From Octopus vulgaris (Eukaryota), in NCBI GenBank assembly GCA_951406725.2, contig CATOCA020000001.1, positions 2,976,001-3,040,000 on the forward strand: a stretch of DNA of 64,000 nucleotides, read 5' to 3'. Both the position numbers and the translations under genes were made by a program. This document shows positions 32,068-62,120 of this stretch, one piece after another. Numbering within the stretch: position 1 is the first letter of the stretch; the number at the start of each line of letters is the position of its first letter. The notes below the pieces were generated by a model. That model was not told the origin of the DNA and did not search any database. It saw nothing but the letters and a program-made list of their open reading frames with translations.

Positions 32068-32258
32068 ATGTTTCACCACGTAGTATCATATAGACGGTCT
32101 CTTGTGTTGATACTGTGTACGATATTGTTTTTGGAGACTCAAGCTGATTCAGATATATGCAACACATGTAATTGCAATTCACTTACAACGAGAATAAATT
32201 GTATAAATCGCAATTTACTATCAATTCCACAGCCAATTCCGACGAATGTTAAATATTT
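32068..32258 (+). CDS. LRR protein first coding exon: signal peptide + LRRNT cap
   Basis: Acceptor ttttcttcttttacAG ends at 32047; ATG at 32068. MFHHVVSYRRSLVLILCTILFLETQA-DSDICNTCNCNSLTTRINCINRNLLSIPQPIPTNVKY. Ends TT|GTAAGT (phase 2). Confidence 0.92.
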
Positions 32259-34599
32259 GTAAGTATTTGACACTTTCTACGTATTTTCCACATCCAATAT
32301 TTTAAATTCTCATTGATTATGTTCTCAGCTAATCGCTTATGCTGTTTATCTCACAGCTTTAAGCACAATCTTATGTTAGAGTAAAACAAATCGATATGTT
32401 ACCTGTTGTGAAGTCAAATAAACTGTTTCCTACCATATTGAATTTATAATATATAACATCGCATACACAGAGATTGGATATGACTAGTATCTGTCTTTGA
32501 TGTCATTTGTCTGAACTTATCAAATCTTACGGTATATTCAATGAACGGACAGTGTAAAAACTTTAGTGCTAAGAAAACGTGTATTCCACATAGTTATATT
32601 ATATCATTAATTAGTTGAATTGTTGCTTATTATTACAGTAATATGATATATCAGTTGATCGTGTCACAGAATAATTGTTAATTATTTTTTTTGTTAATTT
32701 TATAATAGAATATGCAGCGAGCTATCAGAATCGTTGTGCACGCCAGACAAAATGTTGAGCGGTATTTCGTTCGTCTTTACGTTTCGATTTTAAATTCTGT
32801 CGAGGTTGACTTTGTTTTTCATTCTTTTGGAGTCGGTAAAATAAATAGCAATTTATCTCTGAGATCAATGTAAAGGACTTGTCCCTTTCCCAAAATTTCA
32901 GGTTTGTTCCTATGGAAGAAATTATTATTTTTATAATTAAAAATGAAACAGATGGATTAAACAGCAGATAATGACGAGATCCGCTTAAATTGCCAAATTC
33001 TTAAAATACCTAAGTGAAGAAATCAAAATAGTGTTATTTTAACAAATTATGAGGAATTTATTTTTGATAGAATGTCATCAGTAAAATTTACCCTATCATG
33101 AACACAATAAACCTTATTACAAAATTATAGAAGGTTAATTGAAGTTTCGGCTGATTGATGTATCCCCGTTCACCTGAAAACTTACGTAATTTTTAAGTAA
33201 ATTATTAAAATTTAACGTCTCAAGAAATGGAATAGAATAAAAAAGAGTAATTATTTGATACATGCAATCATAACAAATACTCTGTTGGAACACATTGCTC
33301 TTCCAGGTGATTATTTCCAGTTAATTGGCTTACATCATTGCATTAATCACCTTAAACTTTCAGTTTTAATCAAATATTCTAATACTAAAGTGGATCAATT
33401 CATTCGATCAGATCTATTTCTCAAAACATTTGGAACGTTTTGACAAAATGAGAAATCCTAATGTAAAATAAAGAGAAAAGTTTCAATAATGGAATTCCTA
33501 AATCTCGTATAACTCAAGATGTTGAATAGTAAAGTTGAAGTTCTGTTTAATAAGTTAGATATTTTCATCGTTCATAACTTGAGCGAGGTTTGGCACAAAT
33601 CATTTGACCGTCTAGCAGAATACATTGCGTTCTGACACACGGCAATCTGACTTCAAGTCCCGCTAAGGTCAACCTTGCGTCATTCATTTCCGAGATCAAT
33701 AAAAACTTATAACAGTTCAATGAACAAATGCAACTATGACGACGTCGAATATGACACCTTGCAGTATATTGTCTAGTTGTTTGTGATCTGAGTTAAAATC
33801 CCACACTTTTTATTTTACCGATTTTGAAAAAAGGATCAGACACGTTTTATAACTCCTGCAAGATCTCCAATACTTGTGAGGCAGATATCATTAATATTCC
33901 GTTTGAGCTGTTGCAGGTCAACCTTTACAGGAATAATGAAGAGGGATGCTACTTAGGGGAGGAAGGATTTAGCATAGGTAGTTAATAATGGGAACAAACT
34001 GAGGTTTAATACAACAAGAAAAAGAAGCAAAGGACTAAAAAAAGACGAAAAAACTAAGGCAATGTATGTAATCACATCCCTTTTTTAAATAACACCCTAA
34101 GCCAGTTAAATCACCATGTAAGGTTGTTCTCCTTTGTAGCACATGACTCAAAATTATATCAGGGTTTCCCCACTCTGCCTTCACCAATTCTATTAATAAA
34201 TCCCTTTCTATTTCTGTTATGTTTTCCTTCCTAGTCTATTATTTCAGTCTTGAAGTTTTGGGGGTTTATTTTTGTGAAGAACTTTTATGCATCAATTATG
34301 CAAAGGAAAGGAGTTTACTTTTGCAAAGATAAATTACTTTTGACAGCAAAGTGTAATAACAAATAGAATGCTCATTGGACAGAAACAAGATATTTATAAA
34401 TAAAGCTGACTTCTGAGATGATAAAAATATCTTCCACTGAAAACTGATGTTGCAACGAATGCTTTGTAAATCTAATTCAAATCACAAATATTTTGAACAT
34501 CCATTCTTTTCTCATATTTTACATGCATGTGTGTTTTTCATTCATACTTTACGTGGTGACTTAAATCCGTTTTATATCTTATATAATAAACTACCCGTA

Positions 34600-35365
34600 A
34601 ATCGAACAGAACCTTCGTGAAGAAGAAAAGAAAGCCTTACAAACTGAAGAATGACAATTCAATCATCCTAAAAGAAACCGATTAGGGAAGGGTGATAGCA
34701 GTCACGGACCAAGACTACTATAAAAATAAAATATTGGAAACAGACTAATCCTGCTACAAGGAAGAACCAAGACACCCGGAAAAAGTAATAGTGAATACAC
34801 TCAAAAGTCTGATAAATGAATACCAACGTTCATTCACAGATAAAGAGAAAGATTATTTATGCAGCTCTGTAATGAAAGAGAGTAATTTCTATGGATCACC
34901 CAAGATCTGCGAATGCTCCAAAATGCAAGGATCAGCATATAAAAATACTAAGACCTACTGACATCAAATTGAGACCAACAGTTGCTGGACCTTGAGCCCC
35001 AACACAACAACTGAGCCATCTTTTGGATATACTCCGCAAACCGTTATGCCCATTAATGGCCAGCTATACCCGAGACGATATGGATTTCCTCAAGCACATT
35101 CCACCCACTGTCCCAGAACGTACTATAGTGACAAGTTTTGATTAATTTTTACACTAATACACATCACACTTTGGGCCTGGAAGCAATCAAACACTGGGTA
35201 GAAAAACATAGCGGACGGATGGACGAACGCTTCAAAACGCATTTCCAAAGACACACGCCGGGAACTAGAAGACAACACCTTTAGATTCGATAATAAACTA
35301 TATCGACAGATAAAAAGGACATCACTACGGGGACGAGGTTCGCACACATACTCGCACCCAGAGGT
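34600..35365 (+). mobile_element. Decayed PLE reverse transcriptase fragment in the first coding intron
   Basis: LKNDNSIILKETD*G..., FYGSPKI, LRPTVAGP, LSHLLDILRKPL, DDMDFL, GLEAIKHW, NTFRFDNKLYRQIK. Confidence 0.8.
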
Positions 35366-35764
35366 AGATATACATATGTGTGTATATTTCTGAGTGTATA
35401 TGTGTGTATATTTCTGAGTGTATATATGTGTATGTGCTTATATGTGCATACATGTGCGTGTATGTGTGTGGATGTGTGTGTTGGTACATAGAGACGCAAG
35501 TCAAGTAAGAAATAAACATGAAACAGCTGCCACATTGAGACATTCTTCTTCTTCTTCTTCTTTTTCTTCCTCTTCTTCTTCTTCTTCTTCTTCTTCTTCT
35601 TCTTCTTCTTCTTCTTCTTCTTCTTCTTCTTCTTCTTCTTCTTCTTCGTCTTCTTCTTCTTCTTCTTCTTCTTCTTCTCCGTCTTCTTCTTCGTCTTCTT
35701 CTTCTTCTTCTTCTTCTTCTTCTTCTTCTTCTTCTTCTTCTTCTTCTTCCTCCTCCTCCTTCTT

Positions 35765-35795
<31 letters not shown>

Positions 35796-35868
35796 TTATT
35801 ATTATTATTATTATTATTATTCTTCTTCTTCTTCTTCTTCTTCTTCTTCTTCTTCTTTTTCTTCTTCG

Positions 35869-35899
<31 letters not shown>

Positions 35900-36032
35900 C
35901 CTCCTCTTGGTCTTCTTCTTCTTCTTATTATTATTATTCATCTTCTTCTTCTTCTTCTTCGTCTTCTTCTTTTTCTTCTTCTTCTTCTTCTTGTAATCTT
36001 CATCTTCTACGCCTTTTATTTCTTCTTCTGTT

Positions 36033-36064
<32 letters not shown>

Positions 36065-36354
36065 TTCTTTATCTTCTTCTTCTTCTTCTTCTTCTTCTTC
36101 TTCTTCTTCTCCTTTCTCCTTTCTTCTTCTTCTACTTCTCCTTCTGTCTTTCAATCCTTTTTCGGTTTTCATCTTGAACTCCTTCATTTTCCATGTCTAC
36201 TTTTTCTTGTTCTTGTTCTTCTTGTTCTTGTTGTTCTTCTTCTTCTTCGTTATCTTTCTTCTTCTTCTTCCTTTCATTCTGAAGTCACAGTTTTTGGTGT
36301 TTTCTCACAAATATTTTCAATATAATCTATTTTACTCTTTCTTTACTGCTATAG

Positions 36355-36426
36355 AAATCTTGAAGGGAACAACATTGCAACCATCAAAGAAGGAGCATTC
36401 ACGGGGCTTTCGAATTTAAAGACATT
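36355..36426 (+). CDS. LRR cassette exon A1 (72 nt)
   Basis: tAG|A...TT|GTAAGT; (L)NLEGNNIATIKEGAFTGLSNLKT. Confidence 0.92.
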
Positions 36427-37610
36427 GTAAGTTCGTTCAGTTTCTTGATACTATTATCCGAAAGTAATAATTGATGCTGATATATAAGCTCACAAATGTA
36501 TAAAATTTCAGACTGCGCCAAACAAAATCAATTCAAATTTGTAGAATGAACACGATTTAGGAAGATACAAAGAGAATATGAGAGAGCGAGACAATGTGAA
36601 AGAAAGAGAGAGAATTTGGGGGAGAAAGTGAAATAATAGGAAAAATATAATGTTCCTTTATTGTAGTTGCTTTGTTTCAATTCGCATCTCAATAACTCAT
36701 TTTTGTTCCCCAAATTTCAATGATTTTGATATGAATTTGTATTAGAAATGGTAACGTTTGTGAGTTCACATGTTTGCATCAAATATGTTTAGCTGAAGTA
36801 TATATGTATGTTCATATATAAGTGTAGTTCTGTGTGAAATGTGACTATATTATTCCTTTATTTTATATTTTGCATCCTCCTCCATTTCTTATTTCAATAT
36901 TCTCCTTCGTATTTCGATATTATCATTCAACTTCGAATTTTGTCATTCACTTCACGTTATTTATGTAATAGAGCAACTGAAGTGGAAGCGGAAAATATAT
37001 ATTCGAATAATATAGTCACATACATTCTATCTGTAAACCTGAAATACTTACTGTACTTGTAAGCTGGAATATTTGGCCTGATACAATTAAACTGCTGATA
37101 TATTTCTTGTAAGCGTGTGTTTTCTAATATTCTTGTGACAATGAAGCGATATGAAATAAATAATCTCTCTCACCATATTTCCACAAGGGTGAGTGGGAAT
37201 ATGTGTGATGTGAGTGTCCGTATCACCTTACGTCGTTGATATTATCAATATAGGTATGTGTATGAGTGCATTTGGATATGTTGATTTCTGAAACCGTATA
37301 TTCCCTGACCTTTTAGCCAAGTTCTCTCCTTCAAACGTTTGTTCCCTGTCCCTGAAATATCTCCTGTTTTTTCTTTGACTACATTTTCTCTTTCACCTTC
37401 TTGAACACCATGATTTTCAATGTGTCTTCTTCTTCTTCTTCTTCTTCTTCTTCTTCTTCTTCTTCTTCTTCTTCTTCTTCTTCTTCTTCTTCTTCTTCTT
37501 CTCCTCCTTCTTCTTCTTCTTCTTCTTCTTCTTCTTCTTCTTCTTCTTCTTCTTCTTCTTCTTCTTCTTCTTCTTCTTCTCCTTCAACTTCTTCTTCTTC
37601 TTCTCCTTCA

Positions 37611-37641
<31 letters not shown>

Positions 37642-37681
37642 CTTCTCCTCCTCCTTCTTCTTCTTCTTCTTCTTCTAATTC

Positions 37682-37713
<32 letters not shown>

Positions 37714-37726
37714 CTCCTCTACTTCA

Positions 37727-37757
<31 letters not shown>

Positions 37758-37823
37758 CTTCCTCCTCCTCCTCCTTCTTCTTCTTCTTCTTCTTCTTCTT
37801 CTTCTTCTTCTTCTTCTTCTTCA

Positions 37824-37906
<83 letters not shown>

Positions 37907-37957
37907 TTCTTCTTCTTCTTCTTCTTCTTCTTCTCCTTCTTCTTCTTCTTCTTCTTC

Positions 37958-37988
<31 letters not shown>

Positions 37989-38163
37989 CCTTTCTTCTTC
38001 TTCTTCTTCTTCTCCTTCTTCTTCTTCTTCTTCTCCTTCCTTCTTTTTCTTCTTCTTCTTCTTCTTCTTCTTCTTCTTCTTCTCCTCCTCCCCCCACCCT
38101 CCCCATCTTCCTTCTTCTTCTTCTTCTTCTTCTTCTTCTTCTCCTCCTCCTCCTTCTCCTTCA

Positions 38164-38194
<31 letters not shown>

Positions 38195-38342
38195 CTTCTC
38201 CTCCTCCTCCTCCTCCTTCTTCTTCTTCTTCTTCTTCTTCTTCTTCTTCTTCTTCTCCTTCAACTTCTTCTTCTTCCTCTTCTTCTTCTTCTTCCTTCTT
38301 TCTTCTTCTTCTTCTTCTTCTCTTCTTCTTCTTCTTCTTCTT

Positions 38343-38373
<31 letters not shown>

Positions 38374-38829
38374 TTTCATAAACTTACTCCCGTACTTTCT
38401 GCTTCGTCAGTTTTCTCCTTTTTCTTTCTCTTCTACTCTTTTCTGCTATTCTCATTCTCCTCCTTCCCATTCTGCACCTCTTCTCTTCTCTCCTCCCCTC
38501 TCTTCCTCCAATCTCCTTTTTCTCCTCCTCCACGCCTTCTCCACTTTTCCCGCCCCCTACATATCACCTTTCCCACCTCCTCATCCCCTCATCCCCCTTC
38601 TACCCCTCCTCATTCTTCTCATTCTCCTCCCCTTCTCGTCACCCCTACCCGCTTCCTCTCATCCCCGTACGTCTTCTTCTTTTCTTCTTCTTCTACTTCT
38701 TCTTCTTCTTGTTCTTCTTCTTCATTATCCCTATTCTTTCTCTCTCTTTCATTCTAAAGTCACAGTGTTTGATGTCGTATCACAAATATTTTCCATATAA
38801 TCTATTTTACTCTTTCTTTACTGCTATAG

Positions 38830-38901
38830 AAATCTTTGGAACAACAACATTGCAACCATCAAAGAAGGTGCATTCACGGGGCTTTCGAATTTAAAGACAT
38901 T
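38830..38901 (+). CDS. LRR cassette exon A2 (72 nt)
   Basis: tAG|A...TT|GTAAGT; (L)NLWNNNIATIKEGAFTGLSNLKT. Confidence 0.92.
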
Positions 38902-41177
38902 GTAAGTTCGTTTAGTTTCTTGATACTATTATCCGAAAGTAATAATTGATGCTGATATATAAGCTCACAAATGTATAAAATTTCAGACTGCGCCAAACAA
39001 AATCAATTCAAATTTGTAGAATGAACACGATTTAGGTAGATACAAAGAGAATATGAGAGAGCGAGACAATGTGAAAGAAAGAGAGAGAATTTGGGGGAGA
39101 AAGTGAAATAATGGGAAAAATATAATGTTCCTTTATTGTAGTTGCTTTGTTTCAATTCGCATCTCAATAACTCATTTTTGTTCCACAAATTTCAATGATT
39201 TTGATATGAATTTGTATTAGAAATGGTAACGTTTGTGAGTTCACATGTTTGCATCAAATATTTTTAGCTGAAGTATATGTGTATGTTCATATATAAGTGT
39301 AGTTCTGTGTGAAATAAGAATATATTATTCCTTTATTTTATATTTTGCATCTTCCTCCATTTCTTATTTCAATATTCTCCTTCGTGTTTCGATATTATCA
39401 CACCAACTTCGAATTTTATCATTCACTTCACGTTATTTATGTAATAGAGCAACTGAAGTGGAAGCGGAAAATATAAATTCGAATAATATAGTCACATACA
39501 TTCTATCTGTAAACCTGAAATACTTACTGTACATGTAAGCTGGAATATTTGGCCTGATACAATTAAACAGCTGATATATTTCTTGTGAGCGTGTGTTTTC
39601 TAATATTCTTGTGACAATGAAGCGATATGAAATAAATAATATCTCTCACCATATTTCCGCAAGGGTGAGTGGGAATATGTGTGATGTGAGTGTGCATACC
39701 GCATTCCGTCGTTGATACTATGAATATAAGAATGCGTATGAGTGCATTTGAATATGTTGATTTCTGATTCCGTATATTCCCTGATTTTTCAGCCATGTCT
39801 TCTCGCCCAAAATCTTTCATTCTATCCTTGAATTATTTCCTGATGTTTGGAGAACATTTTCAGTTTCATCTTAAACACCATGATTTTCAATGTGTCTTCT
39901 TCTTCTTCTTCTTCTTCTTCTTCTTCTTCTTCTTCTTCTTCTTCTTCTTCTTCTTCTTCTTCTTCTTCTTCTTCTTCTTCTTCTTCTTCTACTTTCAACT
40001 TCTTCATCTACCCTTCCTCCTCCTCCTCCTTCTTCTTATTATTATTCTTTATTCTTTTTCTTCTACACCTACTTTTTCCCTATCATCCTCTTCCTCCTCC
40101 TTTTTCCTCTTCCTTTCTTCTACTTCTTTTTTCATCTTCTTTTTTTCTACCCAATCCTCTCTGCCCCTCCTCCTCCTTTTTCTTCTTGTAATTCTCCTCC
40201 TCCCTTCCACTCCTGCTCCTTTTCTTCTTCTGCTTCTTCTTCTAATTCTTCTTCTTCTTCTTCCTCCTCCTTCTTTCTTTTCTTCTTCTCATTCTTCTAT
40301 TTCTTTTTTTTCTTCTTATATTCTTCTTCTTCTTTTACTTCTTTATCTACTTCTCCTCCTACCCCCCTTTCTTCTTATATTCTTCTTTTTATTATTCTCA
40401 TCCTCCTCCTCCTTCTCCTTCATCTTCTTCTCCTTTTTCATCTTCTCCTACTTATTCTCCCCCTTCATACTCCTACTCCTCCTCCTTTTTCCTCTTCTTC
40501 CTTCTTCTTCTTCTTCTTCTTCTTCTTCTTCTACATCTCCTCCTCCTCCTTCTCCTTCTTAACTTCTGTTTTTGTTATTCTCTTTCTCCTCCTCCTCCTC
40601 CTCCTCCTCCTCTTTCTTCTTCTTCATCTTCTTTTTCCTGCTTCAACTTCTTCTACGTCTTCTTCTTCTTCTTCCCTTCCTTCTTCTTGCAATTCTTCTT
40701 CTTCCCCTTCTTCTTCTTCCCTTCCTTCTTCTTCTTCTTCTTCTTCTTCTTCTTCTCCTTCTTCTTCTCCTTCTTCTTCTTCTTCTTCTTCTCCTTTCTT
40801 CTTTCTACTTCTTCATCTAATTCTCCTCCTCCTCTTCCTCGTCTTTCTTATTCTTATCTTCTTCTTCTTGTTATTCTCTTCCTCCTCCTCCTCCTCCTCC
40901 TCCTTCTTCTTCTTTTACTTTTTCTCCTACATCTTCTTCCCTTTTATCATCCTCCTCCTCCTTTTTCCTCCTATTCCTTCTTGCTCTTCTTTTTCTTCTA
41001 CTTCTTCTTTCTTCTTCTTCTAATTCTTCTTCGCCTCCTCCTCTTCCTTCTTCTTCGTCTTTTTCTTCTTCGTTATCTTTTTTCTTTTTCTTCCTTTCAT
41101 TCTGCAGTCACAGTGTTTGATGTTGTATCACAAATATTTTCCATATAATCTATTTTACTCTTTCTTTACTGCGATAG

Positions 41178-41204
41178 AGATCTTGGAGGGAACAACATTT
41201 CAAC
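41178..41204 (+). pseudogene. Truncated type-A LRR cassette
   Basis: Type-A acceptor module, then DLGGNNIS, breaking at caac into a CTT tract; no donor. Confidence 0.85.
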
Positions 41205-41428
41205 TTCTCCTACATCTTCTCCCCCCTCCTCTTCCTCCTTATCTTCTTTTCCCCTTCCCCCTCCTCCCCTTTCTTCTTCTTCTTCTTCTTCTTCTTCTTC
41301 GTCTTCTCCTTTTCTTCTTCATTTCGTATTATTTTCCTATAATTTGTCCCTTTTCATAAAGAACAATATTGAATATGTTATCGCAATTCACACTATGTCA
41401 ATCTAACCAATATTGTTTCCTGCTTCAG

Positions 41429-41500
41429 ACGTCTTTCCTACAATAAAATTTCAAGGATTGAAAAAGAGATGTTTCAAGGCCTTCACGACTTAGAGATATT
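41429..41500 (+). pseudogene. LRR cassette B1 with mutated splice donor
   Basis: cAG|(L)RLSYNKISRIEKEMFQGLHDLEI followed by ATAAGT instead of GTAAGT. Confidence 0.8.
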
Positions 41501-42538
41501 ATAAGTTCTTTCAATGTTGTCTTTTATACATGAGGAATATACTATGTCTTTAAATTTAATATCCCCTTATTTCCATGTTTTCTCACTCTCTATTACTGTA
41601 AATCATATTCAGTTCTCATATTCGTGTTATATTTATTTGATTGAGTCTGAACATGTCAATGACTGTCAGTTGATAATTGTCTGCATAAAAATGTTATTCC
41701 TGCAAATATATATGTGTATGTTCATATGTATGTATGTATCTGCACTATTAATATAAGTTTTAGCTACTATTTTCTTACACATTGTTCTCTTGATTCTGTG
41801 GTGCCGTGTGGTTATTTATCCACACTTCCACCGAGATAATTTTTTTGTTATTGTTGTTGTTGTTGTTATGTTCTTCTTCTTGTAATTATCCTTTTCCCCT
41901 CCTCCCCCACCTCCCTCTCCTCCATTTTCTTCTTATTATTATTATTGCAATTCTCCTCCTCAACCTCCCCTCTTCGTCCTACTCATCATCCTTTTTCTTC
42001 AGTTTCTTCGTTCTCTTCTATTTTTCTTCTTCTTCATCTTCTTCTTCTTCTTCTCCTTTCCTTCTTCATCTTCTCCATGTTCCTCTTCTTCTTCTACTTC
42101 TTTCTCTTCTTTGTCTTCTTCTTTTTCTTCTTATTCTTTTTCTTCTTTTTCTTCTCTGTACTTTCTGCTCCGACACTGTTCTCCCTCTTTTCCATTCTCT
42201 GCCAATTCTTCATCTTATTCTCAGTCTCCTGTCCCTCCTGCTCCTTCTGCAGCTACCCCCAGCTGCCCCTCCTCAGTCATCCCTTCCTTTGTCCTCCTCC
42301 TAACATCCCCGCCTCTCCACCTCCTCGTCAATTCTCCTTCCTCTTCTTCTTCTTCTTCTTTCTTCTTCTTCTTCTTCTTCTTCTTCTTCTCCTTCTCCTT
42401 TCTAGTTCTTCTTCTTCTTCTTCTTCTTCTTCGTAATCTTTCTTCTTTTTCTTCCTTTCATTCTCAAGTCACAGTGTTTGATGTCGTATCACAAATATTT
42501 TCCATATAATCTATTTTACTCTTTCTTTACTGCTATAG

Positions 42539-42610
42539 AGATCTTGGAGGGAACAACATTTCAACCATCAAAGAAGGTGCATTCACGGGGCTTTCAAATT
42601 TAAAGAAATT
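42539..42610 (+). CDS. LRR cassette exon A3 (72 nt)
   Basis: AG/GT intact; (L)DLGGNNISTIKEGAFTGLSNLKK. Confidence 0.92.
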
Positions 42611-43765
42611 GTAAGTTCGTTTAATTTCTTGATACTATTTTCCGAAAGTAATAATTGATGCTGATATATAAGCTCACAAAAGTATAAAATTTCAGACTGC
42701 ACCAAACAAAATCAATTCGAATTTGTAGAATGAATATGATTTAGGAAGATACAAAAAGAATATGAGAGAGCGAGACAATGTGAAAGAAAGAGAGAGAAAG
42801 TGAAATAATAGGAAAAATATAATGTTCCTTTATTGTAGTTGCTTTGTTTCAATTCGCATCTCAATAACTCATTTTTGTTCCACAAATTTCAATGATTTTG
42901 ATATGAATTTGTATTAGAAATGGTAACGTTTGTGAGTTTACATGTTTGCATCAAATATTTTTAGCTGAAGTATATGTGTATGTTCATATATAAGTGTAGT
43001 TCTGTGTGAAAGGTGAATATATTATTCTTTTATTTTATATTTTACATCCTCCTCCATTTCTTATTTCAATATTCTCCTTCGTGTTTCGATATTATCATTC
43101 AACTTCGAATTTTGTCATTCACTTCACGTTATTTATGTAATAGAGCAACTGAAGTGGAAGCGGAAAATATATATTAGAATAATATAGTCACATACATTCT
43201 ATCTGTAAACCTGAAATACTTACTGTACTTGTAAGCTGGAATATTTGGCCTGATACAATTAAACTGCTGATATATTTCTTGTAAGCGTGTGTTTTCTAAT
43301 ATTCTTGTGACAATGAAGCGATATGAAATAAATAATCTCTCTCACCATATTTCCGCAAGGGTGAGTGGGAATATGTGTGATGTAAGTGTGCATAGCGCAT
43401 TCCGTCGTTGATACTATGAATATAAGAATGCGTATGAGTGCATTTGAATATGTTGATTTCTGATTCCGTATATTCCCTGATTTTTCTGCCATGTCTTCTC
43501 GCCCAAAATTTATCGATCTCTCCTTGAATTATTTCCTGATATTATGAGAACATTTTCAGTTTCGTCTTGAACACCATGATTTTCAACGTATCTTCTTCTT
43601 GTTCGTCTTCTTCTTGTTCTTGTTCTTCTTCTTCTTTCACTTCTTCTTCTCCTTCTTCTTCTTCTTCTTCTTCTTCTTCTTCTTCTTCTTCTTCTTCTCC
43701 TTCTTCTTCTTCTTCTTCTTCTTCTTCTTCTTCTTCTTCTTCTTCTTCTTCTCCTCCTCCTCCTT

Positions 43766-43796
<31 letters not shown>

Positions 43797-44643: not shown

Positions 44644-44715
44644 ACGTCTTTCCTACAATAAAATTTCAAGGATTGAAGAAGAGTTGTTTCAAGGCCTTCA
44701 CAACTTAGAGAAATT
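44644..44715 (+). CDS. LRR cassette exon B2 (72 nt)
   Basis: AG/GT intact; (L)RLSYNKISRIEEELFQGLHNLEK. Confidence 0.92.
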
Positions 44716-47842: not shown

Positions 47843-47873
<31 letters not shown>

Positions 47874-47952
47874 CTTCTTCCTCTTCTACTTCTTTCCTTC
47901 TTCTTCTCCTTCTTCTTCTTTTTGTTCTTTTCTTCTTCTACTTTTCCTCCTC

Positions 47953-47983
<31 letters not shown>

Positions 47984-48781: not shown

Positions 48782-48853
48782 ATATCTTTCCTACAATAAA
48801 ATTTCAAGGATTGAAAAAGAGATGTTTCAAGGCCTTCACAACTTAGAGACATT
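48782..48853 (+). CDS. LRR cassette exon B3 (72 nt)
   Basis: AG/GT intact; (L)YLSYNKISRIEKEMFQGLHNLET. Confidence 0.92.
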
Positions 48854-49672: not shown

Positions 49673-49704
<32 letters not shown>

Positions 49705-49814
49705 CTTCCCTCTACTTCCTCTTCTTCTTTCCTTCTTGTTCTTCTCCTTGTATTCCTTCTTCTTCTTGTTCTTCTACTTTTCTTCTTCTCTTTCTTGTTC
49801 TTCTTCGCCTTCTA

Positions 49815-49845
<31 letters not shown>

Positions 49846-50599
49846 TTCCCTTATTCATTATATTACCATGTAAATTCTTTCTTCACATAATGAACATTAT
49901 TCAATATTTCGTGTTATATTTATTTGATTGAGTCTGAACATGTCACTGACTGTCAGTTGATAATTGCCTGCATAAAAATGTTATTCCTGAAAATATATAT
50001 GTGTATGTTCATATGTATGTATGTATCTGCACTATTAATATAAGTTTTAGCTACTATTTTCTTACACATTGTTCTCTTGATTCTGTGGTGCTGTGTGGTT
50101 ATTTATCAACACTTCCACCGAGATAATTTTTTTGTTATTGTTGTTGTTGTTTTTGTTCTTCTTCTTGTAATTCTCCTTGTTCTTCTTCTTCTCCTTCTCC
50201 TTCTCCTTCTTTTCCTTTTCTTCTTCTTCTTCTTCTTCACCTCCTCCTCCTCCTCCTCCTCCTTCCCCTTCTTCTATTTCTTCTTCTTCATTTTCTTCTT
50301 TTTCTGCTTCTTCTTTTTCTCCTCCTCCTCCTTCTTCTTCTTTTCTTCTTCTTCTTCTTCTTCTTTTTTCTTCTTCTTCTTCTTTTTCTCCTTCTCCTCC
50401 TCCTTCTTCTTTTTCTCCTCCTCCTCCTCATTCTTCTTCTTCTCCTCCTTCTTCTTCTTCTTCTTCTTCTTCTTCGTCTCCTCCTCCTCCTCCTCCTTCT
50501 TCTTCTTATTCTTATTCTTCGTCTCCTCCTTCTTCTTCTTCTTCTTCTTGTTCTTCTTCTTGTTCTTCTTCTTGTTCTTCTTCTTCCCTTATTCATTAT

Positions 50600-50725
50600 A
50601 CTACCATATAAATTCTTTCTTCACATAATGAACATTATTCAATATTTCGTCGCAATTACATACGATGTGAAACTAAGCAAAGTTTCTTCCTGCCTCATAT
50701 ATCTTCTGAACGATGACATTTTTTG
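50600..50725 (+). pseudogene. Relic type-C cassette with dead acceptor (further copies at ~61305-61430 and ~61760-61882)
   Basis: tcgcaattacatacgatgtgaaactaagcaaagtttcttcctgc(c/t)tcAT|atatctt aligns with the type-B acceptor tcgcaattcacactatgtcaatctaaccaatattgtttcctgcttcAG|atatctt. It is followed by YLLNDDI. Confidence 0.6.
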
Positions 50726-52678
50726 GCATTTCCTTAATATATCGACGAATCAACTACTTGACTCTATTCATGATATATCTCTTTGAATGTGCCTGGACAT
50801 GACAACGACTGGCATTGTCGTTAGATTAATTTCTTCTTCTTCTCCTTCTTCTTCTTCTTCTTCTTCTTCTTCTTCTTCTTCTTCTTCTTCTTCTTCTTCT
50901 TCTTCTTCTTCTTCTTCTTCTTCTTCTTCTTCTTTATCTTCTTCTTCTTCATTTCTTCTATTCTTCTTTTCTCTTCCACTTCTCCTTCATTTTCTTCTTG
51001 TAATTCTCTTCCTCCTCCTCTTCTTCCCCTCCTCCTCCTTTTTCTTCTTGTAATTCTTATCCCCCTCCCCCTTCCCATCCTGTTCCTTTTTCTACTTCCT
51101 CTTCTTCTCCTTCTTTTTCTCCTCCTTCTTCTTCTTATTATTATTCTTCTACATCTTCTCCTTCTTCTCCTCCACCTTCTTCTTCTTCTTTTTCTTCTAC
51201 TCCTCCTCGTCTTCCTCCTCCTTCTCTTTCTTCTTCTTCTTCTTCTTCTTCTTCTTCTTCTTCTTCGTCTTCCTCCTCCTTCTCCTCCTCCTCCTCCTTC
51301 TTCCTCTTCTAATTGTTTTTCTTCTTCTTGTTCTTCTTGTTCTTCTTTATTTTCTTTATTTATTTCTCTTCCACCTCCTCTCCACCCCTCCTCCTCCTTT
51401 TTCTTCTTGTAATTCTCCTCCTCCCCCTCCCCTCCTGCTCCTTTTTCTTCTCCTTCTTCTTCTCTTCCTCGTCCTCCTTCATTTTCTTTTTCTTCTTCTC
51501 TCTTTTCTACTTCTTTTTTTCTATTTCTTTTTCTTCTTCTTTTTCTCCTTCATCTTCTTCTTCTACGTCTTCTTCTTCTTCTTCTTCTTCTTCATCTTAA
51601 ACTTCTTCTTCATCTTCTTCTTCTTCTTCTTCTCTTTCTTCTTTATCCTCTTATTCTTCGTCCTCTCGCCTGCTGCTCCTTCTCTTTCTTCTTCTTCTTC
51701 TTATTATTATTATTCTTATTCTCTTCCTTCGTCTTCTACCTCTCCTCCTCGTCCTCCTTCTTATTCATTTTTTCTTCTTCTTCTTCTTCCTCCTCTTCTT
51801 GTTTTTCTTCTACTCCTACTTCTTCCACTTTATCCTCCTCCTCCTCCTTTTTCCTCTTCCTTCTTCTTCTATTCCTTTTTTCCCCTTGTTTTTCTAGTTC
51901 TTCTAATTCTTCTTCTTCTTCTTCTACTTCTCCTCCTCGTTTTCCTCCTTCTTTTTTCTTCTTCTCTTTCGTCTACTTCCTTTTTTTTCTTTTTCTACTT
52001 CTTTATGTACTTCTCCTCCTACTTTTTTCTTCTTCTTATCTTCTTCTTTTTGTTATTCTCCTTCTCCTCCTCCTCTTTCATCTTCTTCTTCTTCTTTCTT
52101 CTACTTCTTCTTATTCTTCCCTTTCATTCTCCTCCTCCTTTTTCGTCCTCTTCCACCTTTTTCTTCTTTTCTTCTCCTTCTTCTCCTTCTTCTACTTCTT
52201 CTTATTCTTCTTCTCCTCCTCCTCCTCTTCTTCTTCCCCCCTCCACCTCCTCATCCTCCTTCTTTTTCTTTTTCTTCTTCTTCATCTACTTCTCCTCTTC
52301 CACTTCCTCTTTCTTCTTCTTATCTTCTTCTTTTTATTATTCTCCTCCTCCTTCTCCTTTCCTTCTTCTTTTTCTTCTTATCCTAGTTCTTCTTCCCTTT
52401 TATCCTCCTCCTCCTCCTTTTCCTCCTAATCCTTATTCTTCTTCTTTTTCTTCCTCTTCTTTTTCTTCTTCTTCATTCTTCTTCTTCTAATTCTTCTTCT
52501 TCTTCTTTTTCTTCCTCTTCGCCTTCTCCTCCTCCTTTCTTCTCCTTATTCTTGATTTTCTTGTTCTTCTTCGTTATCTTTCTTCTTCTTCTTCCTTTCA
52601 TTCTGAAGTCACAGTTTTTGGTGTTTTCTCACAAATATTTTCCATATAATCTATTTTACTCTTTCTTTACTGCAATAG

Positions 52679-52750
52679 ACGTCTTTGGAAGAACAACATT
52701 GCAACCATCAAAGAAGGAGCATTCACGGGGCTTTCAAATTTAAAATACTT
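52679..52750 (+). CDS. LRR cassette exon A5 (72 nt)
   Basis: AG/GT intact; (L)RLWKNNIATIKEGAFTGLSNLKY. Confidence 0.92.
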
Positions 52751-54501
52751 GTAAGTTCGTTCAGTTTCTTGATACTATTTTCCGAAAGTAATAATTGATG
52801 CTGATATATAAGCTCACAAATGTATAAAATTTCAGACTGCGCCAAACAAAATCAATTCGAATTTGTAGAATGAACACGATTTAGGAAGATACAAAGAGAA
52901 TATGAGAGATTGAGACAATGTGAAAGAAAGAGAGAGAATTTGAGAGAGAAAGTGAAATAATAGGAAAAATATAATGTTCCTTTATTGTAGTTGCTTTGTT
53001 TCAATTCGCATCTCAATAACTCATTTTTGTTCCCCAAATTTCAATGATTTTAATATGAATTTGTATTAGAAATGGTAACGTTTGTGAGTTTACATATTTG
53101 CATCAAATATTTTTAGCTGAAGTATATATGTATGTTCATATATAAGTGTAGTTCTGTGTGAAATGTGACTATATTATTCCTTTATTTTATATTTTGCATC
53201 TTCCTCCATTTCTTATTTCAATATTCTCCTTCGTATTTCGATATTATCATTCAAATTCGAATTTTGTCATTCACTTCACGTTATTTATGTAATAGAGCAA
53301 CTGAAGTGGAAGCGGAAAATATATATTAGAATGATGTAGTCACATACATTCTAATATATATTTAAGTACATTTTCAGTTTCGTCTTCAACACCATGATTT
53401 TCAATGTGTCTTCTTCTTCTTCTTCTTCTTCTTCTTCTTCTTCTTCTTCTTCTTCTTCTTCTTCTTCTTCTTCTTCTTCTTCTTCTTCTTCTTCTTCTAC
53501 TTCTTCTTTTTCTCCTCCTCTTTTTAATCTTCTACATCTTCCTATTCTGCTCTACCCTCTGCTCCCTCTGCTCCCCCTCCTCCCCTCTTTTACTTCTTCT
53601 AATTCTTCTTCTTCTTCTCCTTCTTTTTCTCCTTCTTCTCCTTCTTCTTCTTCTTCTTCTTCTACTTCTCCTCCTCGTCTTCCTCCATCTTTTTCTTTTA
53701 TTCTTCTCTTTCTACTACTTTTATTTTTCTTCTTCTTCTTCTTACTTCTCCTTCTTCTTCTTCCCTTTCATCCGCCTCCTTCTTCTTTTTTCTCACCTTC
53801 TTTTTTTTCTACTTCTTCTTCTTCTTCCTCTTCTTTTGCTTCTACTTGTTATTCTTCTTCTCCTTCTTCTCCTTCTCCTTCTTCTTCTACTTCTCCTCCT
53901 CGTCTTCCTTCTTTTTTCTTTTTCTTCTTCTCCTACTTCTACTTTCTACTTCTTCTCTTCCTCTTTCTCCTCTTCCTCCTCCTTCTTCATATCCTTCTTC
54001 TTTTTCCTGCTTCGTCTTCTTCTTCGTCTTCTTCCTTTTCCTCTTCTTCTTCTCCTTTTTCCTTCCTCTTCTTTTCCTTCCTTTTCTTCTTTTTCTCCTC
54101 ACCGTCCTCCTTGTACTTCTTCTTTTTCTTCCTCCTCTTTTTAATCTTCTACATCTTCTTCTTCTTCTAGTCTACCCTCTGCTCCTCTTCCTATTTTCCT
54201 CTCCCTCCTGCATCTTCTGGTCCTATTCCGTCCTCAACCTTCTTCTTTTCCTCCACTCCTTCTCCTCCAACTCCTCCTTTTTCTACCTCTTCTCCCCCCT
54301 CCTCTTCCTCCATGTCTTCTTCTTTTGCGCTTCCCCTCCTCCCCTTCTTCTTTGTCTTCTTCTTCTCCTCAATCTCTTTCCTGTTCCTCTTCTTCTCGTA
54401 TTATTTTCCTATAATTTTGTCCCTTTTCATAAAGAACAATATTGAATATGTTATCGCAATTCACACTATGTCAATCTAACCAATATTGTTTCCTGCTTCA
54501 G

Positions 54502-54573
54502 ACGTCTTTCCTACAATAAAATTTCAAGGATTGAAAAAGAGATGTTTCAAGGCCTTCACAACTTAGAGAAATT
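54502..54573 (+). CDS. LRR cassette exon B4 (72 nt)
   Basis: AG/GT intact; (L)RLSYNKISRIEKEMFQGLHNLEK. Confidence 0.92.
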
Positions 54574-55711
54574 GTAAGTTCTTTCAATGTTGTCGTTTAT
54601 ACATGAGGAATATACTATGTCTTTAAATTTAATATCCCCTTATTTCCATGTTTTCTCACTCTCTAATACAGTAAATCATATTCAGTTCTCATATTCGTGT
54701 TATATTTATTTGATTGAGTCTGAACATGTCAATGACTGTCAGTTGATAATTGTCTGCATCAAAATGTTATTCCTGAAAATATATATGCGTATGTTCATAT
54801 GTATGTATGTATCTGCACTATTAATATAAGGCTTAGCTACTATTTTCTTACACATTGTTCTCTTGATTCTGTGGTGCCGTGTGGTTATTTATCCACACTT
54901 CCACCGAGATAATTTTTTTGTTATTGTTGTTGTTGTTGTTTTGTTCTTCTTCTTGTAATTATCCTTTTCCCCTCCTCCTCCACCTCCTTCTCCTCCTTTT
55001 TCTTCTTCTTGCAATTCTCCTCCTCAACCTCCCCTCTTCGTCCTACTCATCCTCCTTTTTCTTCAATTTCTTCTTTCTCTTTTTCTATTTTTCTTCTTCT
55101 TTCCTTCTTCGTCTTCTTCTTCTTTCCTTCTTCATCTTCTTCATGTTCCTCTTTTTCTTCTTCTTCTTCTTCTTCTTCTTCTTCTTCTTCTTCTTCTTCC
55201 TTTTCTTTGTCTTCTTCTTCTTCTACTTCCTCTTCTTCTTCTTCTTCTTTCTTCTTCTTCTTCTTCTTCTTCTTCTTCTTTTTGTTCTTTTTCTTTTTTC
55301 TTCTCTGTACTTGCTGCTCCGTCACTGGTCTCCCTCTTTCCCATTATCTGCCAATTCTTTCTCTGATTCTCAGTCTGCAGCTCTTCCTGCTCCTTTTGCT
55401 GCTACACCCAGCGGATCCCTGCTCAGTCACCCCTTCCTTTGTCCTCCTCCTAACCTCCCCACCTCTCCACATCCTCCGCCTCCTCCACCTCCTCGTCAAT
55501 TCTCCTTCCTCTCCTTCTTCTTCTTCTTCTTCTCCTTTCTTCTTCTTCTACTTCTTTTTCTTCTTCTCCTACTTCACCTCCCCCTCCTTCTTCTTCTTCT
55601 TCTTCGTTATCTTTCTTCTTTTTCTTCCTTTCATTCTCAAGTCACAGTGTTTGATGTTGTATCACAAATATTTTCCATATAATCTATTTTACTCTTTCTT
55701 TACTGCTATAG

Positions 55712-55783
55712 AGATCTTGGTGCCAACAACATTGCAACCATCAAAGAAGGTACATTCACGGGGCTTTCAAATTTAAAAGAATT
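55712..55783 (+). CDS. LRR cassette exon A6 (72 nt)
   Basis: AG/GT intact; (L)DLGANNIATIKEGTFTGLSNLKE. Confidence 0.92.
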
Positions 55784-56960
55784 GTAAGTTCGTTTAATTT
55801 CTTGATACTATTTTTCGAAAGTAATAATTGATGCTGATATATAAGCTCACAAATGTATAAAATTTCAGACTGCACTGAAGAAAATCAATTCGAATTTGTA
55901 GAATGAACACGATTTAGCAAGATACAAAGAGAATAGGAGAGAGCGAGACAATGTGAAAGAAAGAGAGAGAATTTGAGAGAGAAAGTGAAATAATAGGAAA
56001 AATATAATGTTCCTTTATTGTAGTTGCTTTGTTTCAATTCGCATCTCAATAACTCATTTTTGTTCTCCAAATTTCAATGATTTCGATATGAATTTGTATT
56101 AGAAATGGTAACGTTTGTGAGTTTACATGTTTGCATCAAATATTTTTAGCTGAAGTATATGTGTATGTTCATATATAAGTGTAGTTCTGTGTGAAATATG
56201 AATATATTATTCCTTTATTTTATATTTTGCATCTTCCTCCATTTCTTATTTCAATATTCTCCTTCGTGTTTCGATATTATCACACCAACTTCGAATTTTG
56301 TCATTCACTTCACGTTATTTATGTAATAGAGCAACTGAAGTGGAAGCGGAAAATATATATTAGAATGATGTAGTCACATACATTCTATCTGTAAACCTGA
56401 AATACTTACTGTACTTGTAAGCTGGAATATTTGGCCTGATACAATTAAACTGCTGATATATTTCTTGTAAGCGTGTGTTTTCTAATATTCTTGTGACAAT
56501 GAAGCGATATTAAATAAATAATATCTCTCACCATATTTCCGCAAGGGTGAGTGGGAATATGTGTGATGTGAGTGTGCATACCGCATTCCGTCGTTGATAC
56601 TATGAATATAAGAATGCGTATGAGTGCATTTGAATATGTTGATTTCTGATTCCGTATATTCTGATTTTTCAGCCATGTCTTCTCGCCCAAAATTTACCGC
56701 TCTATCCTTGAATTATTTCCTGATATCTTGAGAACAATTTTAATCTCGTCTTGAATACCATGATTTTAAAAGTGTCTTCTTCTTCTTCTTCTTCTTCTTC
56801 TTCTTCTTCTTCTTGTTGTTGTTCTTCTTCTTCTTATCTTACTGAAACAATTTTTCTCTCTTCTTCTTCTTCCATTCTTCTTCTTCTTGTTCTTCTTCTT
56901 CTTCTTCTTCTTCTTCTTCTTCTTCTTCTTCTTCTTCTTCTTCTTCTTCTTCTTCTTCTT

Positions 56961-56991
<31 letters not shown>

Positions 56992-57259
56992 TCTTCTTCT
57001 TCTTCTTCTTCTTCTTCTTCTTCTTCTTCTTCTTCTTCTTCTTCTTCTTCTTCTTCTTCTTCTTCTTCTTCTTCTTCTTCTTCTTCTTCTTCTTCTTCTT
57101 CTTCTTCTTCTTCTTCTTCTTCTCTTCTTCTTCTTCTTCCCCTTCTTCTTCTTCTTCTTCTTCTTCTTCCTCTTCGTCTTCTTCTTCTTTCTTCTTCTCT
57201 TCTTCTCTTCTTCTTCTTCTTCTTCCTTCTACTTCTTCTTCTTCCTCTCGTCTTCTTCT

Positions 57260-57291
<32 letters not shown>

Positions 57292-57881
57292 TTCTTCTTC
57301 TTCTTCTTCTTCTTCCTTTTCTTTGTCTTCTTCTTCTTCTACTTCCTCTTCTTCTTCTTCTTCTTCGTCTTCTTTCTTCTTCTTCTTCTTCTTCTTCTTC
57401 TTCTTCTTCTTCGTCTTCTTCTTTCCTACTTCTTCTTCATGTTCCTCTTCGTCTTCGTCGTCTTCTTCTTCTTCCTCTTATTTTTCTCCTTCTTCTTCCT
57501 TTTCTTTGTCTTCTTCTTCTACTTCCTCTCCTTCTTCTTCTTCTACTCCCCCTTCTTCTTCTTCTTCTTCTTCTTCTTCTTCTTCTTCTTCTTCTTCGTC
57601 TTCTTCTACTTCCTCTTCCTCCACTTCGTCTTTTTCTTCTCCTTCTTCTTTTTTTTTCTCCTTCTTCTTCTTCTTCGTCTTCTTCTTCTTTCCTACTTCA
57701 TCTTCTTCATGTTCTTCTTTTTCTTCTTCGTCGTCTTCTTCTTCTTCTTCCTCTTATTTTCTCCTTCCTCTTATTTTCTTCCTTTTCCTTGTCTACTTCT
57801 TCTTCTTCCTCTTCTTCTTCTTCTACTCCCCCTTCTTCTTCTGTATCTTCTTCTTCGTCTTCTTCTACTTCCTCTTCCTCC

Positions 57882-57912
<31 letters not shown>

Positions 57913-58699
57913 CTTCTTCTCCTTCTTCTTCTTCTTCTTCTTCTTCTTCTTCTTCTTCTTCTTCTCCTTCTTCTTCTTCTTCTTCTTCTTCTTCTTCTTC
58001 GTCTTCTTCTTCTTTCCTACTTCATCTTCTTCATGTTCCTCTCTTCTTCGTCGTTTTCTTCTTCTACTTCCTCTTCTTCTTCTGCTTCTTCTTCTCCTTC
58101 TTCTTCTTCTTCTGTATCTTCTTCTTCTTCTGCATCTTCTTCTTCTTCTTCTTCTTCTTCTTCTTCTTCTACTTCCTCTTCTTCTTCTTCTTCTTCTTCT
58201 TCTTCTTCTTCTTCTTCTTCTTCTTCTTTTTCTTCTTCTTTTTCTTCTCTGTACTTTCTGCTTCGTCACTGGTCTCCCTCTTTTCCATTCTCTGCCAATT
58301 CTTCCTCTTATTCTCAGTCTGCAGCTCTTCCTCCTCCTTCTGCTGCTACCCGCAGCGGCCCCCTCCTCAGTCATCCCTTCCTTTGTCCTCCTCCAAACAT
58401 CCCCGCCCCTCCATCCCCTCCACCTCCTCCACCTCCTCGTTAATTCTCCTTCCGTTTCTTCTTCTTCTCCTTCTTCTTCTTCTTCTTCTTCTTCTTCTTC
58501 TTCTTCTTCTTCTTCTTCTTCTTCTTCTACTTCTTCGTCTTCTCCTACTCCACCTCCTCCTCTTCCTCCTCCTTCTCCTTCTTCTTCTTCTTCGTTATCT
58601 TTCTTCTTTTTCTTCCTTTCATTCTGAAGTCACAGTGTTTGATGTTGTATCACAAATATTTTCCATATAATCTATTTTACTTTTTCTTTACTGCTATAG

Positions 58700-58771
58700 A
58701 CTTCTGAGATGGAACAACATTTCAACCATCAAAGAAGGAGCGTTCACGGGGCTTTCGAATTTAAATACATT
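58700..58771 (+). CDS. LRR cassette exon A7 (72 nt)
   Basis: AG/GT intact; (L)LLRWNNISTIKEGAFTGLSNLNT. Confidence 0.92.
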
Positions 58772-60486
58772 GTAAGTTCGTTCAGTTTCTTGATACTATT
58801 TTCCGAAAGTAATAATTGATGCTGATATATAAGCTCACAAATGTATAATATTTCAGACTGCACCGAACAAAATCAATTCAAATTTGTAGAATGAACACGA
58901 TTTAGGAAGACACAAAGAGAATAGGAGAGAGCGAGACAATGTGAAAGAAAGAGAGAGAGTTTGAGAGAGAAAGTGAAATAATAGGAAAAATATAATGTTC
59001 CTTTATTGTAGTTGCTTTGTTTCAATTCGCATCTCAATAACTCATTTTTTTTCCCCAAATTTCAATGATTTTGATATGAATTTGTATTAGAAATGGTAAC
59101 GTTTGTGAGTTTACATGTTTGCATCAAATATTTTTAGCTGAAGTATATGTGTATGTTCATATATAAGTGTAGTTCTGTGTGAAATGTGACTATATTATTC
59201 CTTTATTTTATATTATGCATCCTTCTCCATTTCTTAATTCAATATTCTCCTTCGTATTTCGATATTATCATTCAAATTCGAATTTTGTCATTCACTTCAC
59301 GTTATTTATGTAATAGAGCAACTGAAGTGGAAGCGGAAAATATATATTAGAATGATGTAGTCACATACATTCTAATATATATTTAAGTACATTTTCAGTT
59401 TCGTCTTCAACACCATGATTTTCAATGTGTCTTCTTCTTCTTCTTCTTCTTCTTCTTCTTCTTCTTCTTTCTTCTTCTTCTTCTTCTTCTTCTTCTTCTT
59501 CTTCTTCTTCTTCCTCTACTTCTTCTTTTTCTCCTCCTCTTTTTAATCTTCTACATCTTCCTATTCTGCTCTACCCTCTGCTCCTCCTCCTCCCCTCTTT
59601 TACTTCTTCTAATTCTTCTTCTTCTTCTCCTTCTTTTTCTCCTTCTTCTTCTTCTTCTACTTCTCCTCCTCGTCTTCCTCCATCTTTTTCTTTTATTCTT
59701 CTCTTTCTACTACTTTTATTTTTCTTCTTCTTCTTCTTACTTCTCCTTCTTCTTCCCCTTCATCCGCCTCCTTCTTCTTTTTTCTCACCTTCTTTTTTTT
59801 CTACTTCTTCTTCTTCTTCTTCTTCTTCTTTTGCTTCTTCTTGTTATTCTTCTTCTCCTTCTTCTCCTTCTCCTTCTTCTTCTACTTCTCCTCCTCGTCT
59901 TCCTTCTTCTTCTTCTTCTTCTTCTTCTACTTCTACTTTCTACTTCTTCTCTTCCTCTTTCTCCTCTTCCTCCTCCTTCTTCATATCCTTCTTCTTTTTC
60001 CTGCTTCTTCTTCTTCGTCGTCTTCTTTTTCCTCTTCTTCTTCTCCTTTTCTTCCTCTTCTTTTCCTTCCTCTTCTTATTTCTTCTCCTCACCGTCCTCC
60101 TTGTACTTATTCTTTTTCTTCCTCCTCTTTTTAATCTTCTACATCTTCTTCTTCTACTCTACCCTCTGCTCCTCTTCCTATTTTCCTCCCCCTCCTCCAT
60201 CTTCTGGTCCTATTCCGTCCTCAACCTTCTTCTTTTCCTCCACTCCTTCTCCTCCAACTCCTCCTTTTTCTACCTCTTCTCCCCCCTCCTCTTCCTCCAT
60301 GTCTTCTTTTCCCCTTCCCCCTCCTCCCCTTCTTCTTTGTCTTCTTCTTCTCCTCAATCTCTTTCCTGTTCCTCTTCTTCTCGTATTATTTTCCTATAAT
60401 TTTGTCCCTTTTCATAAAGAACAATATTGAATATGTTATCGCAATTCACACTATGTCAATCTAACCAATATTGTTTCCTGCTTCAG

Positions 60487-60558
60487 ATATCTTTCCTACA
60501 ATAAAATTTCAAGGATTGAAAAAGAGATGTTTCAAGGCCTTCACAACTTAGAGACATT
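60487..60558 (+). CDS. LRR cassette exon B5 (72 nt), identical in sequence to B3
   Basis: AG/GT intact; (L)YLSYNKISRIEKEMFQGLHNLET. Confidence 0.92.

Positions 60559-61259: not shown

Positions 61260-61291
<32 letters not shown>

Positions 61292-62079: not shown

Positions 62080-62120
<41 letters not shown>

Follow-up and report, generated by a model that had tools for sequence, protein, structure and literature searches.

An exon-cassette leucine-rich repeat arm in a likely secreted member of an octopus adhesion G protein-coupled receptor family

Arrays of variable modules, such as those of Dscam1 and of the variable lymphocyte receptors (VLRs) of jawless fish, are able to give many recognition surfaces. 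To our knowledge, no variable-receptor system has been established in cephalopods. In algal ROCO genes, the exons encoding leucine-rich repeats (LRRs) are described as 72 bp long and phase 2, a phase also cited for gonadotropin receptors (PMC11378527), and four selected sites have been placed on the protein's concave face (Zambounis et al. 2012, PMC3341825; Teng et al. 2024, PMC11378527). Human NLR and Slit genes are reported to carry frame-preserving LRR exons of 69–87 bp with the border fixed inside the β-sheet, and LRR exons are skipped in them (Hoss et al. 2019, PMC6642158). Tandem 90-bp phase-2 LRR exons with a junction amino acid have been described in Tetrahymena, where the exon number varies among paralogs and unequal crossing-over has been proposed (PMC6564038). 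In octopuses, a lineage-specific expansion of adhesion G protein-coupled receptors (aGPCRs), with LRRs in 5 of 22 sequences and signs of positive selection, is expressed in the nerve cord, suckers, skin and gills (Ritschard et al. 2019, PMC6408891); the main text of that report contains neither "splic" nor "LRR", and no description of exon cassettes was found there. Here, we describe an array of LRR exon cassettes in a 64,000-nucleotide stretch of the Octopus vulgaris genome (hereafter the window; assembly G000, 2.8 Gb, contig C31, positions 2976001–3040000).

We favour, with moderate confidence, the explanation that the array encodes, with one 72-nt phase-2 exon per repeat, the LRR arm of an octopus aGPCR family member that is likely secreted, and that its binding face diversifies in the germline through exon duplication, loss and exchange and selection on four strand residues, some exon skipping being a likely second layer. 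Unequal crossing-over between microsatellite-rich units would change the number and order of cassettes, the selection would be imposed by a ligand that varies and is most likely of microbial or non-self origin, and the mRNA would mostly join cassettes in genomic order, sometimes skipping one or several in frame. What appears new at this locus is the cassette-built LRR arm on an octopus aGPCR family with many likely secreted copies, the selection being suggested by counting. No paper describing these cassettes was found in the open literature, subscription journals lying outside the search. The locus raises the question of whether octopus recognition proteins are diversified between individuals, between cells, or both.

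Cassette array and junctions

The array begins downstream of an LRRNT exon (32048..32258), which matched the annotated model P0001 at 100% and contains an ATG at 32068, a likely signal peptide and the LRRNT cap, ending TT|GTAAGT; this exon and all features of the array described below are on the forward strand. Of 13 cassettes in the window, 11 are intact, each 72 nt long, comprising seven of type A (NNIATIKEGAFTGL-like) and four of type B (YNKISRIEKEMFQGL-like). Type A is represented by cassettes 1 (36355..36426, NLEG...KT), 2 (38830..38901, NLWN...KT), 3 (42539..42610, DLGG...KK), 5 (46688..46759, DLGG...KE), 7 (52679..52750, RLWK...KY), 9 (55712..55783, DLGA...KE) and 10 (58700..58771, LLRW...NT), and type B by cassettes 4 (44644..44715, RLSY...EK), 6 (48782..48853, YLSY...ET), 8 (54502..54573, RLSY...EK) and 11 (60487..60558, YLSY...ET), the sequences of cassettes 6 and 11 being identical. 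The two counted as dead are a truncated type A cassette retaining only its 5' part (41178..41204) and a likely dead type B cassette with the donor AT instead of GT (41429..41500). When joined in order, the 11 cassettes gave an open LRR reading frame with Leu at each junction. Pairwise differences per 72 nt amounted to 4–16 within type A, 0–5 within type B and 27–35 between the two types.

Self-alignment and a list of simple tracts showed that the cassettes lie, one per unit, in tandem-duplicated (TCT)n-rich intron units of 1–4 kb (35543..62380), mostly 75%–91% identical over 1–4.8 kb with the splice sites included. The introns of the array are 1.2–4.4 kb long, and the donors have the consensus GTAAGT. 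In the interval from the LRRNT exon to the constant LRR exon that follows the array, (TCT)n tracts of at least eight units (35571–62380) occurred on the sense strand only, and no GAA tract of at least five units was found. The (TCT)n tracts could promote unequal crossing-over, or could bind pyrimidine-tract proteins favouring skipping.

The initial annotation drew attention to a uniform junction, and this was borne out: the LRRNT exon and all 11 intact cassettes end TT|GT, all 11 cassettes begin AG|A, and every forward junction among these exons gives TTA (Leu), the second L of LxxLxL. The placement of the junction within a β-strand agreed with an AlphaFold2 model of the paralog P0003, in which every predicted strand (residues 63–65, 87–89, 111–113, 135–137, 159–161 and 183–185) is centred on the junction residue. 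This model was built from a 33-sequence alignment and has a block pLDDT of 80–97 over residues 31–190; residues 210–373 and 465–559 are mostly of low confidence, and the Cys-rich and HRM parts received no structural name. The exon joins together with the predicted structure also support the view that each strand is a hybrid of two exons. Any subset of cassettes stays in frame as had been proposed, although the frame is kept by phase 2 and the 72-nt length and not by the TT/A ends. Similarly, all 2^11 (2048) subsets are in frame, but they correspond to 2016 distinct proteins, as two exons are identical. As to the expectation that skipping creates new surfaces, it would alter one or two positions per strand. 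Among the 78 forward junctions that are possible, 45 different strand words occur, compared with 12 under full inclusion. As only one of the four hypervariable residues described below (codon 23) is supplied by the upstream exon, the junction adds modest new chemistry; the larger effect of skipping is on which repeats become adjacent.

Across 103 intact cassettes in 14 paralogs, the first base was A in 93, G in nine and T in one, and the last two bases were TT in 92, CT in seven and AT in four, so that a junction may encode Leu, Ile, Phe or Met. Beyond the window end, the LRR exon that comes next (position 64936) ends AT|GT and gives Ile. Because the cassette ends vary across paralogs yet give one of these four residues, the constraint is on a hydrophobic core residue. 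Moreover, the exons descend from two ancestors with their splice sites copied along, and the 11 matching ends therefore do not represent 11 independent events. In the favoured explanation, the TTA junction is no dedicated device but results from an ancestral intron that lay within a conserved codon for a hydrophobic core residue, and its interpretation as a designed recombination signal was rejected. The junction rule is an already known LRR gene architecture and matters little by itself.

The array resembles the LRR exons reported for brown algal ROCO genes in its 72-bp phase-2 exons with one LRR each (here 11 of 11); splice variants are annotated for both, those of octopus being partly suspect. 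ROCO exons are described as intensely shuffled, and the octopus paralogs likewise varied in exon number and order and, by our counting method, showed signs of diversifying selection at residues predicted to lie on the concave face, four in number as in ROCO exons. Whereas ROCO proteins are cytoplasmic LRR-ROC-COR GTPases, the octopus array encodes an extracellular LRRNT/LRRCT-capped arm of an animal aGPCR family, and the two likely represent parallel design rather than orthology. Frame-preserving LRR exons with a border inside the β-sheet are a feature common to this locus and the human NLR and Slit genes; the variants described in the latter are single-gene isoforms, such as NLRP3 without exon 5, in contrast to the recent multi-kb exon amplification and the hypervariable copies common to paralogs in octopus. 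The Tetrahymena arrays are similar in having equal-length tandem phase-2 exons in variable number among paralogs, but they are described with 90-bp rather than 72-bp exons, thousands of genes, an association with retrotransposons and no GPCR link (PMC6564038).

Gene family and germline variation

On the basis of sequence, the window gene is assigned to an octopus LRR aGPCR family. Its LRRNT exon matched 22 of 27 candidate proteins, all Octopus-named and many of them adhesion GPCR G6-like. The extracellular arm is homologous to that of full-length members, with 93%–96% DNA identity over several kb to an inverted neighbour, P0006, which contains LRR, GPS and 7tm_2 (PF00002, E 6.6e-34); the GAIN domain and GPS motif were present in the paralogs P0006 and P0022. 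The gene continues beyond the window with the constant LRR exon at 64936, LRRCT at ~75830, then Cys-rich, SEA-like and HRM-like exons, a last exon at ~102660 and the gene end at ~102700 (numbering counted on from the window), and the downstream exons of P0001 are open and match the genome. The arm comprises LRR and weak HRM domains and a SEA-like fold predicted in a paralog, the domain name being read from secondary structure. Tandem-clustered octopus receptors with LRR, GPS and an adhesion seven-transmembrane (7TM) domain form group 3 of Ritschard et al. (PMC6408891), and the paralogs with LRR, GPS and 7tm_2 found here resemble them. The placement in this group would follow from shared architecture, not from sequence comparison, and the window copy differs in being without GAIN or 7TM. 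An LGR/GRL101 identity, considered at first, was rejected, as the paralogs carry PF00002 and GPS with no LDLa reported. Fold searches and sequence searches against PDB returned generic extracellular LRR proteins; the fold matches included VLR structures but also LRIG1, chondroadherin and the Nogo receptor and were thus not specific.

In the 120 kb that follow the window end, this strand showed no GAIN, GPS or first transmembrane (TM1) exon, whereas the same queries matched the inverted neighbour. In the P0001 protein, neither GAIN nor GPS was found, and no 19-residue window passed a hydropathy of 1.6. None of the 34 scored matches placed a TM1 exon downstream on the forward strand of C31. Since this copy is without GAIN or 7TM exons, its product is likely secreted. 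The final exon of the window gene is homologous to the sequence 3' of the TM exons in full-length copies, from which we infer a GAIN–7TM deletion. Among 14 catalogued genes, seven looked truncated in this way, three had GAIN and TM1 (full length) and four were ambiguous; the catalogue leaves out paralogs on C2, C5, C14, C29 and other contigs. The family last exon (L004:8657-8708) had at least 17 further copies at 95%–99% identity, on C31, C30, C2, C5, C14, C7 and C1, and close TM1 exon copies numbered six at ≥ 93% identity. With more last-exon copies than close TM1 copies, truncated copies seem to outnumber full-length ones. The inverted paralog lies head-to-head with the window gene on the reverse strand (C31: 2.90–2.95 Mb, L011–L016) and has two cassettes together with GAIN, GPS and TM exons, its identity to the window gene extending over several multi-kb blocks with introns included. 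A membrane copy therefore adjoins a likely secreted one.

The 14 genes contained 2–21 cassettes each, 115 in total, of which 12 were broken (some breaks are possibly assembly errors). For the analysis of selection, 68 closely related cassettes of type A were used, 64 of them distinct, the two more distant genes on C30 being excluded. The proportion of nonsynonymous differences (pN) at exon codons 1, 3, 4 and 23 was 0.50, 0.64, 0.56 and 0.57, respectively, whereas the 18 framework codons showed a pN of 0.044 and a proportion of synonymous differences (pS) of 0.169; the nucleotide diversity (pi) of the adjacent intron flanks was 0.05–0.06. In 163 pairs with downstream 250-nt introns less than 2% different, pN and pS were 0.54 and 0.18 at the four codons and 0.047 and 0.16 at the rest. 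The change at the four codons was tenfold above that in the introns. In the LxxLxLxxN motif, these hypervariable codons specify the x residues on either side of the junction Leu, and, by LRR convention, the variable residues are predicted to flank this Leu on the concave face. For 58 of the 68 cassettes, the nearest exon was in another gene, which fits exchange or block duplication. Furthermore, a spliced cassette start in sequencing run X15 matched nothing in G000 exactly, which would fit differences between individuals or species. Germline diversification is thus supported at the level of sequence, and the counts suggest selection at the four strand residues. Variation at four residues over 11 repeat exons would suit a fast-evolving recognition protein, here in a GPCR family in which cassettes are shuffled, four strand residues are hypervariable and numerous copies seem to be without the membrane part.

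Several observations weigh against this explanation. The values are pairwise counts on non-independent, recombining sequences, obtained with no codon model, and the four codons were chosen after inspection of the data. At codon 3 alone, pS (0.73) exceeded pN (0.64), and pS was about equal to pN when the seven type A exons of the window were taken alone. Duplication of whole genes could be part of the reason why nearest neighbours lie in other genes. The signal peptide call was made by eye, with no predictor, and the read contigs reaching the first splice junction, considered below, differed from this copy by 3–10 letters. Ritschard et al. tend to view the family as serving neural adhesion (PMC6408891).

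Splicing and alternative explanations

Read contigs were compared with window positions 32001–33500 in 4 of 24 listed runs. The LRRNT exon was covered in contigs of all four, the intron being uncovered save for a short repeat and one low-depth contig, and in all four runs contigs continued at 32258 into an LRR cassette start, confirming the first splice for the family. The runs are not catalogued as RNA; the exon-only cover and the loose contig ends at the donor indicate spliced material. One junction contig matched a paralog at C31: 10.81 Mb, with the LRRNT exon joined to that gene's own first cassette. Three loose 5' contig ends had no match in the window, and one of them also had none in 60 loci. 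A search for transcript-derived short proteins returned five annotation proteins only.

Annotated models gave indirect support for skipping: isoforms that skip cassettes are annotated in three Octopus species, although some of them resemble mapping chimeras. Of 17 O. vulgaris models examined, 16 were mapped, P0054 being dropped because it matched none of the 14 genes. Nine of the 16 omit intact cassettes, six use all of them, and one, P0011, loses the reading frame in a broken cassette. At this locus, the annotated model P0001 takes up 2 of the 11 cassettes (5 and 7). Three O. vulgaris genes each have two models differing by cassettes, and one gene is annotated with alternative first cassettes and optional second and third cassettes. 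The O. vulgaris reference annotation is described as drawing on Iso-Seq data and short reads, updated by PASA, and as merged with predictions made ab initio (10.1101/2023.05.16.540928); given this merging, individual models, P0001 among them, may be predictions in part. For O. sinensis and O. bimaculoides, isoform structures were read from proteins alone; one O. sinensis RefSeq gene had 13 isoforms differing by 24-residue units, with seven different units after the LRRNT exon, and another had at least seven isoforms. Half-and-half units, in which the 5' half comes from one cassette and the 3' half from a different one, were contained in 4 of these 13 isoforms and in one of three from another cluster.

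One alternative is that all intact cassettes are spliced constitutively in order, and that the annotated skipping reflects alleles of other individuals and mis-mapping among near-identical exons. The mid-exon chimeras speak for it, as do the sharing of cassettes by several paralogs, the transcribed cassette absent from the assembly and the six models that include every intact cassette. In the chimeric units, the break falls on the Glu-Gly codons, a place at which AG|GT is present in many type A exons. The simplest explanation is that transcripts of recombinant alleles or of paralogs, or else template switches, were forced onto a site resembling a splice site. However, in an O. bimaculoides paralog with well-diverged repeats, the isoforms X2–X4 each lack one repeat. 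These repeats are too different for easy mis-mapping, and the three isoforms constitute the best case for true skipping. Symmetric in-frame LRR exons are also reported to be skipped in NLRP3 (PMC6642158) and algal ROCO genes (PMC11378527). Strictly constitutive splicing appears unlikely.

Combinatorial splicing of this array is possible. That it is the main source of diversity, yielding many in-frame LRR subsets, perhaps differing per cell as in Dscam, is an idea that we consider unlikely. In its favour are the compatibility of all junctions, the many O. sinensis isoforms, the use of two cassettes by P0001 and the O. vulgaris gene with an alternative first and optional second and third cassettes. 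On the other hand, in the sole RNA junction whose gene could be identified, the LRRNT exon is followed by the first cassette of the same gene, and the chimeric units in the RefSeq isoforms point to mis-mapping. No docking/selector-like pairing was detected, in that positions 32259–64935 contained no non-simple inverted match of at least 18 nt with the dust filter on, a search that short or weak pairings would escape; with the filter off, two weak inverted matches appeared (E 3.4). The donors are of consensus type, the introns are long, and neighbouring cassettes are co-included, the annotated models carrying runs of adjacent cassettes of up to 13 of 21. The co-inclusion of neighbours and the lack of docking/selector pairing make a Dscam-type exclusive choice unlikely; the array thus differs from arthropod Dscam1, with neither mutually exclusive choice nor a docking element found here. 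A compact paralog at C30: 18.377–18.412 Mb (L056–L059) has 21 intact cassettes in 34 kb, with two models that use 10 and 13 of them, and is a better target for splicing tests than the window.

A more elaborate version is doubtful. It would combine germline-shuffled, positively selected exons with cell-specific splicing into a VLR-like octopus repertoire of secreted and membrane LRR proteins, with possible half-exon swaps at internal AG|GT sites and with soluble copies as partners or decoys of 7TM copies. Internal AG|GT occurs at exon codons 12–13 (Glu-Gly) in four of the seven type A exons of the window (38830, 42539, 46688 and 55712). Without a pyrimidine tract, genuine half-exon splicing at such sites is unlikely.

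The array could also be a neutrally expanding, decaying duplicate, in which microsatellites drove the amplification of cassettes in a pseudogene left from a truncated receptor and free of any selected function. The 12 broken cassettes among the 115 in the 14 paralogs, the missing GAIN and 7TM parts and the letter differences between the junction contigs and this copy would fit such a history. We regard it as improbable, because 11 of the 13 window cassettes are intact, the framework codons appear purified with change concentrated at the four strand codons, the downstream exons of P0001 are open, and the family was transcribed and spliced in all four runs compared.

VLR cassettes are non-spliced donors for an incomplete germline gene. 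A comparable use of the octopus cassettes in somatic DNA rearrangement or gene conversion is very improbable: the 24-residue repeats with a hypervariable concave face, the VLR structures among the fold matches and the chimeric units in transcript-based models recall the lamprey system, but the octopus germline gene is complete, its cassettes all being exons that can be spliced and that follow one another from LRRNT to LRRCT, and the fold matches are common to LRIG1, chondroadherin and the Nogo receptor.

Flanking features

Upstream of the array, a tblastn search with P0001 located a coding exon of this model (MLMSGKKEGIL; 17801..17834, forward strand) followed by a GT donor at 17835, known from the annotation model only. 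Positions 1–30700 contain retroelement-like open reading frames on the reverse strand, with starts near 1733, 2515, 6946, 9500 and 15461, as well as local duplications at 15327–30680 and an inverted repeat (1–704 / 2461–3172).

Downstream of the array, positions 63347–63466 are 90% identical to the exon by which the model P0018 joins an LRR array to an ankyrin (MIB2-like) gene, and ankyrin exons occur at ~171955–173950. The LRR–ankyrin join in P0018 is probably an annotation fusion, and the LRR-aGPCR and ankyrin genes may have been co-duplicated. Two intact Cys-rich exons at 81067–83315, past the window end, are omitted by P0001 and included in paralog models, and the Cys-rich domain is repeated two or three times in some O. 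sinensis proteins. As Cys-rich exons are skipped or repeated among models, the modularity of the gene extends past the LRRs.

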